Source: Pristiophorus japonicus
Lineage: Eukaryota
Direction: 5' to 3'
Length of the DNA: 64,000 nt
Assembly (NCBI RefSeq): GCF_044704955.1
Contig: NC_091993.1
Coordinates: 84,010,001 to 84,074,000 of the forward strand
The notes under the pieces are model-generated. The model searched no databases, was not told the origin of the DNA, and worked only from the letters and a program-made list of their open reading frames with translations. Below, in pieces: positions 4,021 to 63,761 of this stretch (position 1 is its first letter; each line of letters starts with the position of its first letter). Made by a program: the position numbers and the translations under genes.

Positions 4021-5214
4021 ATGGGGGCAATACTGACAATGCCATACTTGCAAAGCCTTTTGCATGCTGGTGCTGCGGAGGAGATAATTGATTCGACATC
4101 ATCGCACGAGGAACTTCAGAGCATGTAGGGTGATGACAGGAGGCTTTACCCACATCGGGTATATCAAGACAGGTGTTCATACCTGCACCTGATTGATGCA
4201 GACTGTGTCAGAAGGCTGCGTTTTTGCAAAGAAGTTGGAACTGAGATCTGTGAGTTAGTAAAAGCAGACCTGCAACTTAGAAGCGTCAGGAGGACGAATT
4301 TGTCAGTTGAAGTGAAGGTTACAGCTGCACTTTCATTCTATGCATGTGGATCGTTCCAAGCTACAACTGGGAATGTGTGTGCCATTTCTCAACATGCAAC
4401 ACATATCTGCATTCGGCAGGTGACTGCTGCACTATATGCCCAGAGGAATGATAACATAAAGTTCCCCATGAGCGCCCAGGCAATGCATAATAGGGCTGTG
4501 ATCTTCTCCAAGATTGCTGGCTTCCCAAAGATACAGGGTTACATTGATTGTACCCACATCACCTTGCGAGCACCATTGGAGGATTCCAAAATGTTCAGGA
4601 ACAGAAAAGGCTTCCACTACGTTGATGTGCAGCTCGTGTATGACTACATGAATTGCATCATGTCAGTTGATGCGAGATACCCCGGGAGCATCCATGATGC
4701 GTTCATCCTATGCGAGAATGGTATATCTGCCTTGTTTCAGCAGCAGCCAAAAAGGAAGAGCTGGCTACTGGGAGACAACGGGTACAGCCTCGCCACCTGG
4801 CTCACGACACCCCTATGCGTAACCCGGACGAAAGCTGACCGGGAATACAACATGTCGCACATTGCGACGCGCAGCATAATAGAGCGAACCATTGTCATCT
4901 TGAACCAGCGTTTCCAATGCCTGGACCATTCCGGAGGCTACTTGCAATACTCCCCTGAGATTGTCGGTCAGTTCGCTGTTGTGTGCTACATGCTGCATAA
5001 CTTAGCCATCATGAGGCAGCAGCAGCTGGTAGTAGAAGACCCACCTGAGGTGAGAGTGGCTGATGATAATTATGAGGAAGATGCAGAGGATGAGGAAGCC
5101 ATGCACCTACCTGAACCCGGGGCACGACGGCGTAGGTGGGCGGGCCGTCATGCCCCTTTAATGATTGTTCGAGCCTTGCGCCAGCAGCTCATCCATGAAC
5201 GCTTCGCTGCCTGA
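4021..5214 (+). pseudogene. Harbinger DDE transposase (HARBI1-like family)
   Basis: ORF 4300-5214 has ALSFYACGSFQ, IDCTH, RNRKGFH, YPGSIHDAFIL, WLLGDNGY, TRSIIERT and YMLHN, with the D-D-E triad retained. The N-terminus from ATG 4021 (YPHRVY..SYLHL..CVRRLRF) is frameshifted. Confidence 0.9.
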
Positions 5215-24261: not shown

Positions 24262-27200
24262 TGTGATATATTCACAGAGCACAGCACATACCGCTTCCTA
24301 ACATGGCAGGCAGCTCTCTCGGAAGTCTCCGGAATTGCCTGGTTATGTTTAATGATTAACTCTGCAATTGCAGTACACAATACGTCCACATCCACAATGT
24401 GGAGCTACAAACATTACACGCTTACAGACATTACACTTCTCCCTCCTTAATGAAGAAGCCATCATAACAAACATCATACATAACTTTCATGTTTATACAT
24501 AACACAGGATATAGACTTATTTTTTTCTTTCCATATTTACAAATTTAACTTTACCACTTGTTTTCTGTTTCGAAGAGGATACCTTCGCTCTCCAACAGAA
24601 CCTTCCAAACATGGTGTCGATTTCACACTCATTCGAGGCTCATCCTGAGGAACGTTTTCCTCCATGGAATTTCCTTGATTTTCATTTGAACTCTCTCTAA
24701 CTTCAGGCTCTTTGTTTTCCTGACTCAGACTCAGACTTTCATTCTGATTCTCTCCTGGATATGTTTCCAGTACATTGGATTTAGGATTTGCTACTGGTGT
24801 ATCAAAACTATCTGATGAGTCAGAAATAATTGAATCATTCCCACCTTCAACTCCTTCCATGTCTGTAGCTAAAATATGATCAATATGAACAAACCTAACC
24901 TGTTCATTATCAAACATCTTTACCAAATATGTACGAGGACCACATATCTTCACCACTCTTCCTGGTAACCACTTTAACCATTTATGGTGATGGTTCTTCA
25001 CTCTCACCTTCTGGTTTAATTTCACACTTCTCTCTTTTACTCTACCTTTATCATGATTCTCGTTCTGTCTTAATTGTGTCTCTTCTACGGACTGTGCCAA
25101 ATTTGGCTTTAACAACGAGAATCTGGTTTGTGGCTGTCGTTTGCGAAACAACTCTGCTGGTGTTCTACCAGTAGTTGTATGAGGAGTATTTCGATATGTA
25201 ATCAAAAAATTAGCCAATTTGTGATCCAGTGACAACTGTCGTTTCCTTGGATTTGGATCTAACATTTGTTTTATGAGGGCATGTTTTACAATTTGTACAG
25301 TGCGCTCTGCTGCACCATTCGAAGCAGGATGGTATGGTGGAACCTTGGTATGTTTCACACCATTTTTGCTCGTGAATTGTGTAAATTCTTCTGAACAAAA
25401 TTGTGGTCCATTATCCAAAACAATTTCTTCAGGGAGGCCAAATGAAGAAAATAATTTTCGTAAAATGTCCAATGTTTTACTTGTTGTTATTTTCCACATT
25501 GCAAACACCTCAACCCACTTCGAATGGCTATCAATCACAATGAACAATTGTTGTCCTTCTAACTCAGCAAAATCAATATGTAGCCTTTGCCACACCCTGG
25601 GAGGCCATTTCCATGGTTGTAATGGTACTGGTGGCTGTTGCTTGCTTACCGATTGACATGTCGTACACTGGCTCACGATGTACTCTATATCTTTATCAAG
25701 AACTGGCCACCATAAATAACTGCATGCAAAACTCTTGGTCAAGCACATTCCCAGGTGCTGGTCATGGAGGTCTCCTAATAATTTGGACCTGAATTTATTT
25801 GGTATAACCACTCTTGCACCCCACATGATATAATCTTTATTGACTGATAATTCATTCCTACGAATGAAGAATGGATGTGTATCTTTGTCCGTTACCTGGT
25901 TTGGCCATCCATTTGCAATATACTCCCAACACCTTTGACATCACTGAATCACGTTTGGTTGCTCTACCATCTCTTCAGCTGTGACTGGCAGTTCATCAAT
26001 GTATGAAAAATAAAACACTTCTTCCCTATCGGGTATAACTTGTGATGGGGAAGGCAATCTAGACATTGCATCAGCATTACTGTGATCAGCTGATCGTCTG
26101 TATTCAATATCATATGTATATGCTGACAAAATCAAAGCCCATCTCTGCATTCGGGCTGCAGCTAATATTGGAACTGGGGACTTTGGATGGAGGATTGCTG
26201 TTAAGGGCTTATGGTCCGTAACGATGGTAAACTTACAACCATACAATATTTGTGAAACTTCTTGACCCCAAAAATTAATGCCAAAGCTTCCCTTTCAATT
26301 TGCGCATAATTACTCTCACTGGCACTGAGAGTGCGTGAAGCAAAAACATTTGGTCTCTCCTCCCCACTACTTGATACATGAGAGATTACTGCCCCAACTC
26401 CATATGGGGAGGCATCACATGCTAGCTTAATCTCCTTAGATATGTCACAGTGAACTAACATGGTGCTCTCTACCAATTTGCTTTTACACTCTTTGAATGC
26501 TGTATCGCATTCTTTTGACCACTTCCAATGGACCTGTTTTTTCAAAAGTTCATTCAGTGGATGTAATACTGTAGCCAAATTTGGTCGGAACTTCCCATAA
26601 TAGTTCAAAAGACCCAAGAATGAACGAAGTTCAGTGACATTCCTGGGAGTGGGTGCATTTCTAATTGCATCCAATTTTTTCATGGTTGGATGTAAACCAT
26701 CTTTGTCTACTCTGTACCCTAAGTACTCCACTGAGTTTTTAAATAACTCACACTTACGAGCAGACACTCGTACTCTGTGCTTCTCTAGCCGTTTGAGGAC
26801 TTCACTCAAAATGTTATTATGAATTTGCCTATTTGATGCTGAAATTAGTATGTCATCCAAGTAACATACTACCTCTTGAATACCGTGCAAAATCTGGTTC
26901 ATCACCCCTTGGAATATGGCAGGGGCGGAAGACACTCCAAACGGTAGCCTATTAAATTGATATAGGCCTCGATGAGTATTTATCGTCAAACATGATTTGG
27001 ACTTCTCATCTAGTTCAAGCTGTAAGTAGGCATTCGTAAGATCCAGTTTTGAGAAGACCTGACCACCTGTCAGTGTTGTGAACAAATCTTCTATATTCAG
27101 TAATGTATTGGGGACATTACCCTCTAGAACCTGGTTTACGGTTACTTTATAATCACCACACAATCTTACCTTATCATCGGACTTAGGTACACCAACAATG

Positions 27201-29009
27201 GGGGTGTAGCAAAATTACATCGATCTATCTTACAAATAATGTTCTCAGTCTCTAGTCTTTTGAGTTCTTGCTCAACTTTCTCCTTGAGTGAATGTGGTTT
27301 GTAGTAAACCGACCTAGCATCCTTCTGTACCCTGACACTCGCCTTGAAGCCTTGGATCGGACTGCCCATTTCGCAGAACACCTTCGGATACTGCTTGATA
27401 ACCTCATCCGTTGATGAAAATCTCACTTCCACACACAAAATCTTACTTCAATCCAGCTTCAGTGAGCTCAACCAATTTCTTCTGAGTAAGGCAGACTTGT
27501 CTCCTTTCACTACTATTAGAGGCAAGTTCTGAAATTGATCTTTATATTTCACCAGTACGATGATACGACCTACCACAGGAATTTTCTCTCCCGAGTAGCC
27601 TCGCAGTTCTATCTTGGATTTCTCCAGTTGGAAATCACGCAATTTGTCGCAGTACAGTGACTCAAGTACTACACTCACGGATGCACCCGTGTCAATTTCC
27701 ATTGGTATCTTGAATCCCACAACATCTATGGATTTTGATGCTTTCCGAATCGCTGTCCGTTAACCTCGTGCTCCTGATGACATGTAACTCTAACATCTCC
27801 TCGTCCTGTTGTTGTTCTTCCAAGCTATGTAGTCTCTTGGGATTTCTACTCATAGCTTTGAACGCTGGACTCATAGCTTTGGAAGCTGGTTTACCCTTCA
27901 GTCGGCATGTCTTCGCAAGATGCCCAGTCTTCCTGCAGAAGAAACACTCTGCCTTCACGTATGGACAACTTTGAGCAATGTGTTGTCCCAGGCACCTATA
28001 GCACGACTTCGACGCTCTGTTAGAATTTCTAGTTTCTGAGTCTTTCGGCCATGCCCGTCTTTTACTTTGAACCTGCAGGTGATTTACCTCGGTTGACTGA
28101 CGACCGTAATTATTATTTAATTCTCGGGAATATTGTTCGGCCATGCCCATCGACCTCGCTGTCTGACAAGCAAGCTTAAAAGTCAAGTCATCCGTCATCA
28201 ATAACTTCCTTCTGATCACATCATTTTTCACCCCACAAACAAAACTATCCCGTAATGCTCGGTTTTGAAAGTTTCCAAAATTACAGTGCATCGATAGCTT
28301 TTTTAATGCTACGATGTAATCACTGATACTTACATCAGCCTTTTGATTCCGAATCCCGAAACGATAGCGTTCAGAAATTTCTAACGGTTTGGGGTTATAG
28401 TGCTGTCCAGCTTCGTTAAAATCTCTTTAAGCGTTGTGTCCTTTGGCTCGTCAGGCACAAGCAGATTTACAAGGGTTTCGTATAATGCCGGACCTGCCTC
28501 CGATAAGAAGATCGCTTTCTTACGTTCCAACACAGCCCGGTTCTGGACTGCATTGTCTGGAACTTCAATTATGTTATTTGCAGTGAAATACATTTCTTGC
28601 CGATCCACATTTGCTTTAAAACGTTCCTGGTCGTGTCGATATTCCCCCAAATATCCCAATACACCTGCCATTTTAATCTCTAGCCGTTCACACCACATTC
28701 TGTATTTTACCTCGGATTTTGTAGCTTTTTTCCAAAGACACAAACTTCCAAAGTCTCTCTGTCGGCTGGCTGAATCCTTCACCAACAAAATTTAAGCTTT
28801 AAATCATCCGAAAAATCCCATCTTCCGTCGCCAAATGTGATATATTCACAGAGCACAGCACACACAGCTTCCTAACATGGTAGGCAGCTCTCTCGGAAGT
28901 CTCCGGAATTGCCTGGTTCTGTTTAATGATTAACTCTGCAATTGCAGTACACAATACGTCCACATCCACAGTGTGGAGCTACAAACATTACAAGCTTACA
29001 GACATTACA
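24262..29009 (-). mobile_element. full-length Gypsy LTR retrotransposon (Mag-like)
   Basis: 174-bp LTRs at 24262-24435 and 28836-29009 (6 differences by eye); 5-bp TSD gtttt; PBS 28814-28833 matching the tRNA-Ser(GCT) 3' end (aatcccatc.tcgtcgcca); PPT ttaaggagggagaag. Confidence 0.95.
24537..28671 (-). pseudogene. gag-pol, frameshifted: Gag with two zinc knuckles, protease, RT, RNase H, integrase
   Basis: MAGVLGYLGEY; CYRCLGQHIAQSC..CFFCRKTGHLAKTC; MEIDTGASVS; LPFGVSSAP and YLDD; ACDASPYGVGAV; LHDQHLGM..CTTC, IDFA, LDNGPQF and SNGAAER. Confidence 0.93.
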
Positions 29010-29539
29010 GTTTTTAAGGTTTATTTTAACAGAACCACGTGATGCTGTGGAGCCTGCTGGTCCTGGGCTCTCAATTCTGTACAGCTCCATCTGCTGTGTG
29101 AGCTTGAGTGTTTTTATTTTAAAATGTAAATGTTTTTTTAATGGCAGTTTCAGCATTGTTAGGCATTGTATGAGTGGACCTGAATTTTCCCTCCCTCTCG
29201 CCCTTTACAAACATTGCTCCAGGCCCATTTCCAAGTGGGAAATTATTTTATTTTAAATGAGTAATTGTTTTTAAAACTTGAATGTTTTGCATATTTTGTG
29301 GTTCGCAACTGATGTCCTGCTGTGATAGCCAGTCCCTACCCAGTTTGTCCATCCCTGTTGGCTGTACCCAATCCTGCCCATGATGTGTGTCCACATCTCC
29401 CCCCTCCCTCCCCCCCCCCCCGACCACGTTTGGCAGCATTGGCCTCCGGTTAGAAGCAATTTTCAATTGAATAATGTATTTTAACTTTCTTTTTATTCCT
29501 GCCTTGTATTTTATCCCGAGCTTCACACCTACTGTGTCT

Positions 29540-30475
29540 GCCCCTCCCCACGATCTGCCCGCCCCCTCCCCGCGATCTCCGCGCCCCCTCCCCGCGATCT
29601 CCGCGCCCGTGATCTCCGCGACCGCGATCTCCGCGGCCCCTCCCCACCATTTCCCCGGCCCCTCCCCGCCATCTCCGCGCGCCCCCTCCCCGCCGCCTCC
29701 CCGCCATCTCCGTGCCCCCTCCCCACCATCTCTGCACCTCCTCCCCGCCATCTCCCCGCCATCTCCGCGCCTCCTCCCCGCCATCTCTGCGCCCCCTCCC
29801 CGCCATCTCCGCGCCCCCTCCCCGCCATCTCCGCGCCCCCTCCCCGCCATCTCCGCGCCCCCTCCCCGCCATCTCCGCGCCCCCTCCCCGCCATCTCCGC
29901 GCCCCCTCCCCGCCATCTCCGCGCCCCCTCCCCGCCATCTCCGCGCCCCCTCCGTGCCATCTCCACGCCCCCTCCCCGCCATCTCCGCGCCCCCTCCCCG
30001 CCATCTCCGCGCCCCCTCCCCGCCTCCTCCCCGCCATCTCACTGCGATCTCACCGCCCCCTCCCCGCGATCTCGCAGCCCTCTCCCGCAGTCTCCGCTTG
30101 CCCCCGTCCCCTCGATCTCCTCGCCCCCGCGATTTGATCTCCGTGGCCCCTCTGATCTCTCCACCCCTTCCCCGCGATCTACCCGCCCCCTCCCCACGAT
30201 CTGATCTCCGCTCCACCTCCCCATGATTTCTGCGCCGCCTTCCCGCGATCTCCATGCCCCGTCGCTGCGATCTGATCTCGCCGCCCGCTTCCTGCGATCT
30301 CCTCACCCCCTCCCCGCGATCTCCTCACCCCCTCCCCGTGATCTCCCCTCCCTGCGATCCCCCTCCCCGCCATCTCTGCACCCCCTCTCTGCGATCTGAT
30401 CTCGGTGTCCCCTCCCTGCGATCTCGGCACCTCCTTCCTGCGATCTTGGTGCCCCCTCCCTGCGATCTCCATGCT
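29540..30475. repeat. GC-rich minisatellite, ~23-bp unit cccctccccgccatctccgcgcc
   Basis: Near-perfect units at ~29790-29950, degenerating outwards to gcgatctc variants; strong C/G strand asymmetry. Confidence 0.92.
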
Positions 30476-62340: not shown

Positions 62341-62890
62341 AACATAGAAGTTTATGGCACAGAAGTAGACCTTTTAGTCCATCATGTCTATGCTAGCTCT
62401 TTGCAATTCAAAACTAATCCCACTACCCCACAGCCCTGTATCTTCTGTGCTTCAAATATTTATTATTTTCTGAAATGATCTCTGCCTCAACCATTCCCTT
62501 GGTAAAGCATCCATTCCCCAACAATATTTTGTATAAGATTTTTCTTCTAAGTCCTCTGCTTAATCTCTCAGTAACTATTTAAAATTTATGGCCCCCTTGT
62601 CACTGACCCCACCACCAGAGGAATTAGCGTTTCACTATTCTATCAAAGTGCTTAATAATTTTTAATGCTTCTATTAAATCTTCTCTTAGCCTTCTCTGCT
62701 TCAATGGAAATTGCTCTAGCATCTCAAGTTTTCCATCCCTGGCATTATCTTGCTGAATCTATGTTGTATGCTCCCTATGGCTTTAATGTCCTTATGTCCT
62801 TTATATAAAGGCTGGCCAAAACTTCCTTTATTATTGACCTTAACCAAAGTTTTGTACAAATTTATCATGACTTTGTCACTCGTATATTCT
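62341..62890 (-). mobile_element. decayed CR1 3' fragment
   Basis: aacatagaagtttatggcacagaag tail; resembles 44785-45360. Confidence 0.6.
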
Positions 62891-62897
62891 CTGCCTC

Positions 62898-63530
62898 ATG
62901 TCAGCTTGACTCATTGGTTTACTACACGATTAGTAGATGACTTTTCTACACATCTTCGTGTATTCAGAAAAGCTCAACAAAAGATAGAAGACTCAAGACA
63001 AAAAAAAGATGCCTCGGAGGAATTTGTTGAAACTTTTTTTGAGGTTGAAGTGGAAATGGAAAGAGTCTCACCTCTGAGTCAGCAAGTTGCATGTTCAAGC
63101 CCCACTCCAGGAGTTGAGCGCATACTCTAACCTGATACTTTAGTGCATATTGAAGGACAGTGGGATTCATTGGAAAGCACTCATAAAGAGATGACACAGG
63201 CACGATGAGCTGAATGGCCTCCTTCTGTGCTGTATCATTCTATTATTCTATATTGAGAGTACTGCATTATTGGAGGTACTGTCCTTTGGATGAAACATTT
63301 AGCAGAGGTCCTGCCTATGCTCGGGTGGAAGTAAAAGATACCACTTTGAAGAATAAGCACGTTATCTTTCAATCAAAACCACCAAAATAGATGAGCTTTG
63401 ATATTTATTTCATTGCTGTTTGCAAATTAGCTGCTGCATTTGCCTACATAAATAAAGTATTTGGTCAGCTGTTAAGTGCTTCGGGGCTTCTTGAGGTGTG
63501 AAATGTGTGATGAAAATGCAAGTTCGTTCT
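62898..63530 (+). mobile_element. SacSINE1-like SINE carrying an SNX13 fragment and a CR1-tail insert
   Basis: Head atgtcagcttgactcattgg (62898-62917) resumes at ~63063 gagtctcacctctgagtcag...ttcaagccccactccagg; Deu-like core ~63253-63350; CR1 tail ~63160-63250. Confidence 0.75.
62918..63062 (+). pseudogene. SNX13: SNX13 (sorting nexin 13) PXA-domain coding fragment, retrocopy-like
   Basis: FTTRLVDDFSTHLRVFRKAQQKIEDSRQKKDASEEFVETFFEVEVEME versus human SNX13 as recalled, FTTRIVDDFGTHLRVFRKAQQKITEKDDQVKGTAEDLVDTFFEVEVEME. No splice sites at either end. Confidence 0.85.
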
Positions 63531-63761
63531 TTGCTACTTTTCCTTATTTTTCTTCCTTCTATAAAATCCAAAATGCTTTTTCTTCCTTTTTTTTTGCTTT
63601 ACCTACTTGCGCTTGCATTTTCAGGGATTTAAGTTTTAAATCATTTGGTCTCTTTGTTAATCTATGCCTTCATGTCTTTCCATTGAATGTATACTTCTCC
63701 TCATTTTTCCTCCCTAAAGTATTACTTTCCCTCCCAAAAGTATTACTTAACAGTTATCAAC

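Follow-up and report, generated by a model that had tools for sequence, protein, structure and literature searches.

The closest described systems are the class 2 templated insertions (TSI/TSIP) and RMDR. The former have been described in human cells and people, with experimental sizes of 73-414 bp in the part of the report considered here (PMC5110952). For RMDR, the part of the work considered here leaves the priming as unknown to its authors, and the word tRNA is absent from its main text (PMC4516963). Other RNA-derived copies that invite comparison are tailless retropseudogenes (PMC5322556) and LTR-mediated retrocopies, the latter treated in a review in which, as far as considered here, retrocopying is held to be restricted by sequence-specific LINEs, CR1 among them (PMC5470649). 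Moreover, repair polymerases can copy RNA too, according to the portion of a further source seen here (PMC12065846). Our analysis of a shark locus adds a natural example to this set. A piece copied from SNX13 mRNA lies inside a dead SINE, and a sister patch elsewhere in the genome has the same end; we consider it probable that both were joined in during break repair and go back to a recurrent start of copying, possibly set by tRNA-His.

In the window, by which we mean the whole 64,000-nucleotide stretch of DNA analysed here (on C17), positions 62918-63065 are derived from SNX13, as found by translation and by a search of the genome DNA. The piece comprises 148 bp and 49 codons without an internal stop. 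A preliminary description of this DNA had recognised an uninterrupted SNX13 PXA segment, which holds, the translation of 62918-63064 giving 49 residues with up to 98% identity to shark SNX13 in a protein comparison; its length of 145 bp and 48 residues needed correction. The frame from 62918 onward matches Pfam PXA with E=4e-4, weaker than the curated cut-off, and a search of solved structures gave one weak, unrelated match. The host element is an old SINE, SacSINE1-like according to the preliminary description. SacSINE1 is a Deu-SINE with a tRNA head, a Deu domain and an L2-derived tail, as far as the consulted part of its description goes (PMC5499810). As a family yardstick we used a sequence of ~460 bases with a tRNA-like head, built from 24 family copies. 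An Rfam scan gave four matches, all under gathering scores. The features recorded in the window are as follows.

4129-5214: frame of 361 residues for a Harbinger-like DDE transposase (Pfam DDE_Tnp_4).
24262-29012, minus strand: Gypsy-type LTR element with frames for reverse transcriptase (RT), RNase H and integrase; its primer site is not of the His type, and its LTRs agree to 96% over 177 bases.
29450-30230: array of tandem repeats (period 11/22 bases) in which several frames are open.
62899-62917, plus strand: 5' part of the old tRNA-headed SINE, aligned to the 5' end of the family yardstick, with an A-box-like motif at 62907-62917.
62918-63008, plus strand: upstream-exon part of the SNX13 patch; parent C5:139204190-139204280, 90/91 identical.
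63009-63065, plus strand: downstream-exon part of the SNX13 patch; parent C5:139212175-139212231, 57/57 identical.
63034-63040, plus strand: T7 run inside the patch, seen in the sequence and predicted to act as a Pol III stop.
63066-63153, plus strand: SINE head resumed, 79/94 identical to the family yardstick, with a B-box-like motif at 63092-63102.
63154-63249, plus strand: separate insertion nested in the SINE, the 3' tail of a high-copy LINE that is presumably CR1-like; 82-87% to three aligned siblings.
63257-63531, plus strand: SINE body and tail, decayed and with several deletions, placed by alignment to the yardstick.

The parent SNX13 gene on C5 is intact, with 23 exons recovered in order. 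A 7,894-bp GT-AG intron separates the two exons concerned, its GT donor lying directly 3' of the upstream exon and its AG acceptor directly 5' of the downstream one, and the window joins these exons without loss or gain at 63008/63009, one base into an Asp codon. Because the exon-exon join is exact and the parent carries a GT/AG intron at this point, the window patch derives from spliced SNX13 RNA. This bears out the earlier proposals of an exon junction near 63008 and of a spliced-RNA source, for which the genome search delivered the two adjacent C5 exons, and excludes the origin from a single exon that had been named as their refutation. The patch differs from the parent at one of 148 positions (0.7%), a change from G to T at 62945, and its first base, a T, may equally belong to the host SINE. 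A genome DNA search with the patch returned four matches for four candidates: the window, the two C5 pieces and one piece on C1. Furthermore, a 935-letter contig from another individual (run X5, kind unrecorded) contains all of 62918-63065 together with parent exon sequence on both sides, which is the structure expected of a spliced transcript.

The patch begins directly after the A-box-like motif and the SINE continues at once behind it, at 63066, as the preliminary description had it; its observation that poly(A), a LINE tail and a target-site duplication are absent from the patch borders was likewise confirmed by inspection of the sequence. Instead, the host SINE has lost 5-6 bp at the patch: six family bases are missing, the first of them, a T, being ambiguous with the insert. 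The 3' end of the patch falls mid-exon within coding sequence and not at a poly(A) site, and the sequence there is GAAAGAG, which is not A-rich. How an ordinary retroinsertion looks at this locus is shown by the nested LINE tail, which the preliminary description had missed, as it had the second SNX13 patch on C1. The LINE tail is flanked by ATATTGA at 63147-63153 and again at 63250-63256, a 7-bp duplication. The patch lies within a 136-residue stop-to-stop frame (window 62720-63130), and Pfam scans of 20 of the 60 long window frames met transposon families only. Most likely the patch is inert, and we saw no sign of function.

The second patch, at C1:498827191-498827320, spans the same SNX13 exon junction. 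It measures 130 bp, has four mismatches to the parent and corresponds to window 62936-63065, wholly inside the span of the window patch. The host at C1 is an unrelated high-copy repeat which is not a SINE and stands at 86-89% (median), like its siblings; seven of its bases are deleted at the site. At the left junction 17 of 19 empty siblings read GAT where the insert begins with GAT, and at the right junction, where GAG closes the insert, five of the six siblings that have the same GTT variant likewise read GAG. Judged from sibling copies, the C1 patch thus has 3 bp of microhomology at each end; at the C17 patch it amounts to at most one base on the left. A loss of bases between short matches on either side, as at C1, is what end-joining repair leaves behind.

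The starts of the two patches differ by 18 bases, and both patches stop at one and the same base of the parent, to within the 3-base match at C1. They have no mutation in common, and all five changes in the two patches alter residues that are conserved between the parent and its closest homologue. The flanks at the C1 and C17 junctions are unrelated, and a segmental duplication between the two sites was rejected, as only dispersed repeats are common to them and none lies at the junctions.

Spliced SNX13 RNA served as the template, and its cDNA entered a long-dead SINE with 5-6 host bases lost and nothing duplicated; we propose that this happened when a chromosome break in the germ line was repaired by end joining and captured the piece. 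That the joining was done by end-joining break repair is very probable, because there is a microdeletion at both sites and a 3-bp microhomology at both C1 ends. The two patches would then be independent events with one preferred point on the SNX13 mRNA at which copying started, which we regard as a likely though less firm part of the proposal. In the last step tRNA-His would anneal to the mRNA and prime a reverse transcriptase, and the short cDNA would be trimmed by a few bases before its capture.

How unusual the shared end is can be judged from searches of the whole genome. A search with the whole SNX13 protein gave 26 matches, of which 23 are exons of the parent, two are the patches and one belongs to a distant paralogue; the search covered the coding sequence, with 914 of 958 residues recovered. 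SNX25, searched in this way as a control, yielded 17 matches, every one a parent exon and all in order, and no processed piece; both protein searches were run under a stricter filter. SNX25 itself is split in the assembly, with its 5' exons on the unplaced contig C4013 and its 3' exons at C1:45.6-45.7 Mb. Neither the DNA nor the protein searches of the genome found a third processed piece of SNX13 coding sequence. A Pfam PXA search for further fragments, which is insensitive and listed neither of the known patches, gave five matches: three parent exons and two paralogues. Thus both processed SNX13 pieces, two of two from ~2,900 coding bases, end together, and the chance that a second end falls at most three bases from the first is ~0.2% by arithmetic. 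The recurrence comprises two events in one gene, set beside one control gene.

The downstream exon of the parent contains a site complementary to tRNA-His (C5:139212237), at a distance of five bases beyond the shared end. The last nine encoded bases of the tRNA are predicted to pair with it perfectly, beginning at the base before CCA, and three further pairs follow. With CCA left out, the site is the best in 2,913 exonic bases, at -19.8 kcal/mol where the runner-up reaches -12.6; with CCA the values are -20.4 and -16.2 kcal/mol. Its score is reached by 15 of 20,000 shuffled 15-mers. The match was found post hoc among about six ideas tried, and the chance that any of 45-60 tRNA ends would fit within 6-11 bases, 0.1-0.5%, is uncorrected for these multiple ideas. 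The complement of the tRNA 3' end does not extend to CCA at the SNX13 site, so that CCA stays unpaired with mature tRNA-His, which is unlike a true primer-binding site. Moreover, the predicted start lies five bases beyond the observed ends, a gap that requires either trimming at both sites or, at C17, a slip of three bases. The C17 junction can alternatively be read up to the tRNA site, if one allows for a slip of three bases and a match of 2-3 bases to the SINE; a blunt join explains it just as simply. Priming by tRNA-His, or by a 3' piece of it that lacks CCA, is the likeliest single cause that we found for the shared end, and we put it forward tentatively, on the strength of the predicted pairing.

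The genome contains 98 tRNA ends that match tRNA-His, and ARAGORN called tRNA-His in five of the six loci examined. About 94 of these ends form a tandem array at C16:8.56-8.75 Mb, where the ARAGORN check was made in five loci. At C8:81324938 a short LINE tail is joined directly, at its 5' end, to the terminal 18 bases of tRNA-His with CCA, an arrangement that looks like a template jump from LINE to tRNA that halted after 18 bases. As for a possible source of reverse transcriptase, the exact 16-base His primer site occurs at three genomic places (15 matches, 13 of them in one array). An LTR family adjoins two of the three; it is old, with best identities of 73-87% and pairwise identities with a median of 76.5% and a maximum of 85.7%. 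Judged by these identities, the His-primed LTR copies found would be older than either patch. The family is mostly solo, and a His-like site follows one of 25 copies in one set and about four of 20, counted by eye, in another. Among the best 40 copies for each of two LTR queries, no young His-primed element was found, and the Gypsy-type element in the window was rejected as a source because its primer site is non-His. On the minus strand at C3:199676986-199677362, an LTR end is followed by ~24 tandem 19-base repeats of the His primer site in two variants, and related copies carry two or more sites.

The rival that survives best does without a tRNA. A broken DNA end would itself prime a repair polymerase or the reverse transcriptase of a LINE on a stable fragment of SNX13 RNA, formed by cleavage or decay, whose 3' end lay at the shared base or slightly beyond it. 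Copying from one RNA end gives a common 3' end and differing 5' ends, as observed; the GAG microhomology with which the C1 patch ends could have served for priming, the genome has many young LINE copies, with pairs at 95-96%, and direct copying from the end of a break is one of two models in the part of the RMDR report considered here (PMC4516963). The RNA 3' end that it presumes is hypothetical, however, and of a kind that contigs cannot reveal, and the 9-base match to tRNA-His becomes a coincidence, with its uncorrected expectation of 0.1-0.5%. Furthermore, the sequence before the shared end is unlike the tails of SINEs and LINEs, 64% and 76% of shuffles, respectively, equalling its score; mimicry of a LINE or SINE tail in the 48 bases around the end was rejected as no better than shuffles. 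Nor did the loci examined hold a repeat complementary to the end region beyond 11-13 bases. Copying from an RNA fragment is a variant of the last two steps and leaves the confidence in the first four as it is; we give it a substantial share, somewhat short of an even chance, which is spread over causes without a name.

A single RNA-templated event, with C1 later copied from C17 or both copied from a lost retrocopy, is improbable. It would account for the C1 patch lying entirely within the C17 span, and a T follows both patches, so that C17 DNA offers a 4-base match; the mutation counts of one (C17) and four (C1) are compatible with equal age (P = 0.15). However, the C1 patch lacks the C17 change at 62945 and has four changes of its own, and so looks older, and it carries no SINE letters beyond the possible T, which CpG decay in the host explains. 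That this one 148-bp spot, with its exact edge, should be chosen from 5.9 Gb would be far less likely than a second use of the mRNA, and the searches of the genome found no third copy. A T run such as T7 terminates Pol III transcription. Transcription of the C17 chimera by Pol III was thus rejected as the source of C1, since the transcript would stop short at the T7 run.

A chance coincidence of the ends of two independent patches is more doubtful still. Just two events are at hand, end joining favours short matches and GAG is common, but the above arithmetic makes the coincidence a rare one, and that one gene gave rise to two patches is itself unexpected, the SNX25 control having none. If the shared end were due to chance or to a secondary copy, the locus would be an ordinary clean repair scar with no sign of function.

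For the window patch, the preliminary description had left the choice between an RNA-templated break-repair patch and a double template switch from SINE RNA to SNX13 mRNA and back during SINE insertion, the latter as a route by which SINEs carry coding fragments. The patch lies inside a SINE and on its strand, as a switch would require. The comparison of divergence that had been suggested opposes it: the SINE copy (62899-63531) has 79 mismatches in 377 aligned bases relative to the family, or 21% (siblings 11-24%), a thirty-fold gap to the 0.7% of the insert. The empty SINE that had also been called for was found in a relative. A 192-letter contig of relative B (run X8) aligns with its letters 1-59 to 62855-62913 and with its letters 70-152 to 63066-63154, the two alignment rows being taken as one contig from their equal length, depth (9.74) and strand. 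The ten letters between the aligned parts correspond to the family spacing, where the window has four plus the insert, and the exact SINE letters lost can be deduced from the family and this gap. We read the contig as the orthologous empty site because it takes in 44 bases to the left of the SINE and neighbouring contigs extend this flank. It stops aligning at the LINE tail (63154-63249), with 40 letters left, and the LINE may be absent there. Contigs of relatives C and D reach 62913, and their next 21 and 26 letters fail to align with the insert. The flanks of the site differ by ~6-13% between the window and the relatives, whose upstream SNX13 exon shows 5, 5 and 6 differences in 91 bases, against 1 in 91 for the own parent. 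Run X21 gave no contig on the insert, and X8, X12 and X13 no spliced SNX13 contig among the matches listed; neither was taken as absence.

These data show that the insert arrived after the split from the relatives and long after the SINE, with a host loss of 5-6 bases and no duplication. As the insert is younger than both the SINE and the lineage split, a template switch at the birth of the SINE is therefore rejected, and we leave it a very small probability. The genome search revealed no second SINE-SNX13 chimera, the sister patch sits in a repeat that is not a SINE, and the chimera is not expected to move, because T7 would stop Pol III before the SINE tail; the idea of SINEs as carriers of coding fragments finds no support either. 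The break-repair patch is the proposal that agrees with the microdeletion, the lack of a duplication, the young insert, the empty site in the relative and the double microhomology of the C1 sister. Contigs of run X3, assembled from short reads, cross the left junction (62671-63008) and the right junction (63036-63221) with 0 differences each, at depths of 8.15 and 7.8 compared with 7.6-7.9 in the flanks, and the unbroken left-junction contig suggests that this sample has no empty allele and that the insert looks homozygous. That the patch is an assembly artefact or cDNA contamination can be set aside as next to impossible, for although X3, the sole supporting DNA run, may be the sample behind the assembly, its contigs span both junctions at a depth like that of the flanks and the insert bears a mutation of its own that is found neither in the parent nor in X5.

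Overall, the patch shows the testable features of a class 2 templated insertion or of RMDR, and is most probably a repair patch and not SINE cargo. With class 2 insertions, as the part of the report considered here presents them, it has in common a short copy of a distant and intact donor, spliced cDNA donors, germ-line occurrence, a lack of duplication and poly(A), a microdeletion and, judged from the sibling copies at C1, microhomology. It differs in that it is found in a shark, looks homozygous in one sample and arose twice from one mRNA, and in its recurrent end, of which that part of the report describes none (PMC5110952). RMDR likewise involves mRNA pieces that lack introns, are truncated at both ends and were captured at breaks with single or double microhomologies of 1-5 bases, but the part of that study considered here used induced Cas9 breaks in mouse zygotes, and its natural examples are pieces of MuERV-L and not of a host mRNA (PMC4516963). 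Tailless retropseudogenes also lack poly(A) and have preferred internal 3' endpoints common to independent copies, in the portion of the text considered here (PMC5322556). Here such an endpoint is common to two of two copies, whose independence we infer. In that same portion, however, these retropseudogenes depend on L1 in therians, have duplications of 8-35 bases and are primed at A-rich sites (PMC5322556), whereas there is a deletion and no duplication here; a tailless retropseudogene was thus rejected from the deletions at both sites and the GAAAGAG end, and an L1-type processed pseudogene (class 1) from the mid-exon end and the lack of a tail and of a duplication. If priming by tRNA-His holds, the patches would resemble LTR-mediated retrocopies in that a reverse transcriptase which uses tRNA copied part of an mRNA; unlike these, which arise by template switching and are LTR-flanked in the part of the review considered here, the mRNA itself would bear the priming site (PMC5470649). 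LTR sequence is absent at both patch junctions, where the flanks are the SINE and another dispersed repeat, continuous across the sites, and an LTR-mediated retrocopy was rejected on this ground.

In the literature searched, neither such patches in sharks nor ends set by a tRNA came to light, no title listed dealt with host mRNA primed by a tRNA, and for shark retrocopies a single hagfish paper was listed; recurrent ends or tRNA priming may nevertheless be in print. The locus shows the entry of a host mRNA into the germ line of a cartilaginous fish, where LINEs of the CR1 kind are held to restrict retrocopying (PMC5470649). It is conceivable, though we would not yet count on it, that a host mRNA with a cryptic tRNA primer site yields short cDNAs of fixed start which are repeatedly captured as patches of germ-line breaks; if true, tRNA complementarity would pick the mRNA segments that become DNA where LINEs ignore poly(A) tails. 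Compared with the known systems, the patch is of a known type and the recurrent end is its unexplained new aspect, and a natural, heritable pair of patches with one end offers a handle on how the cDNA that patches breaks is primed.
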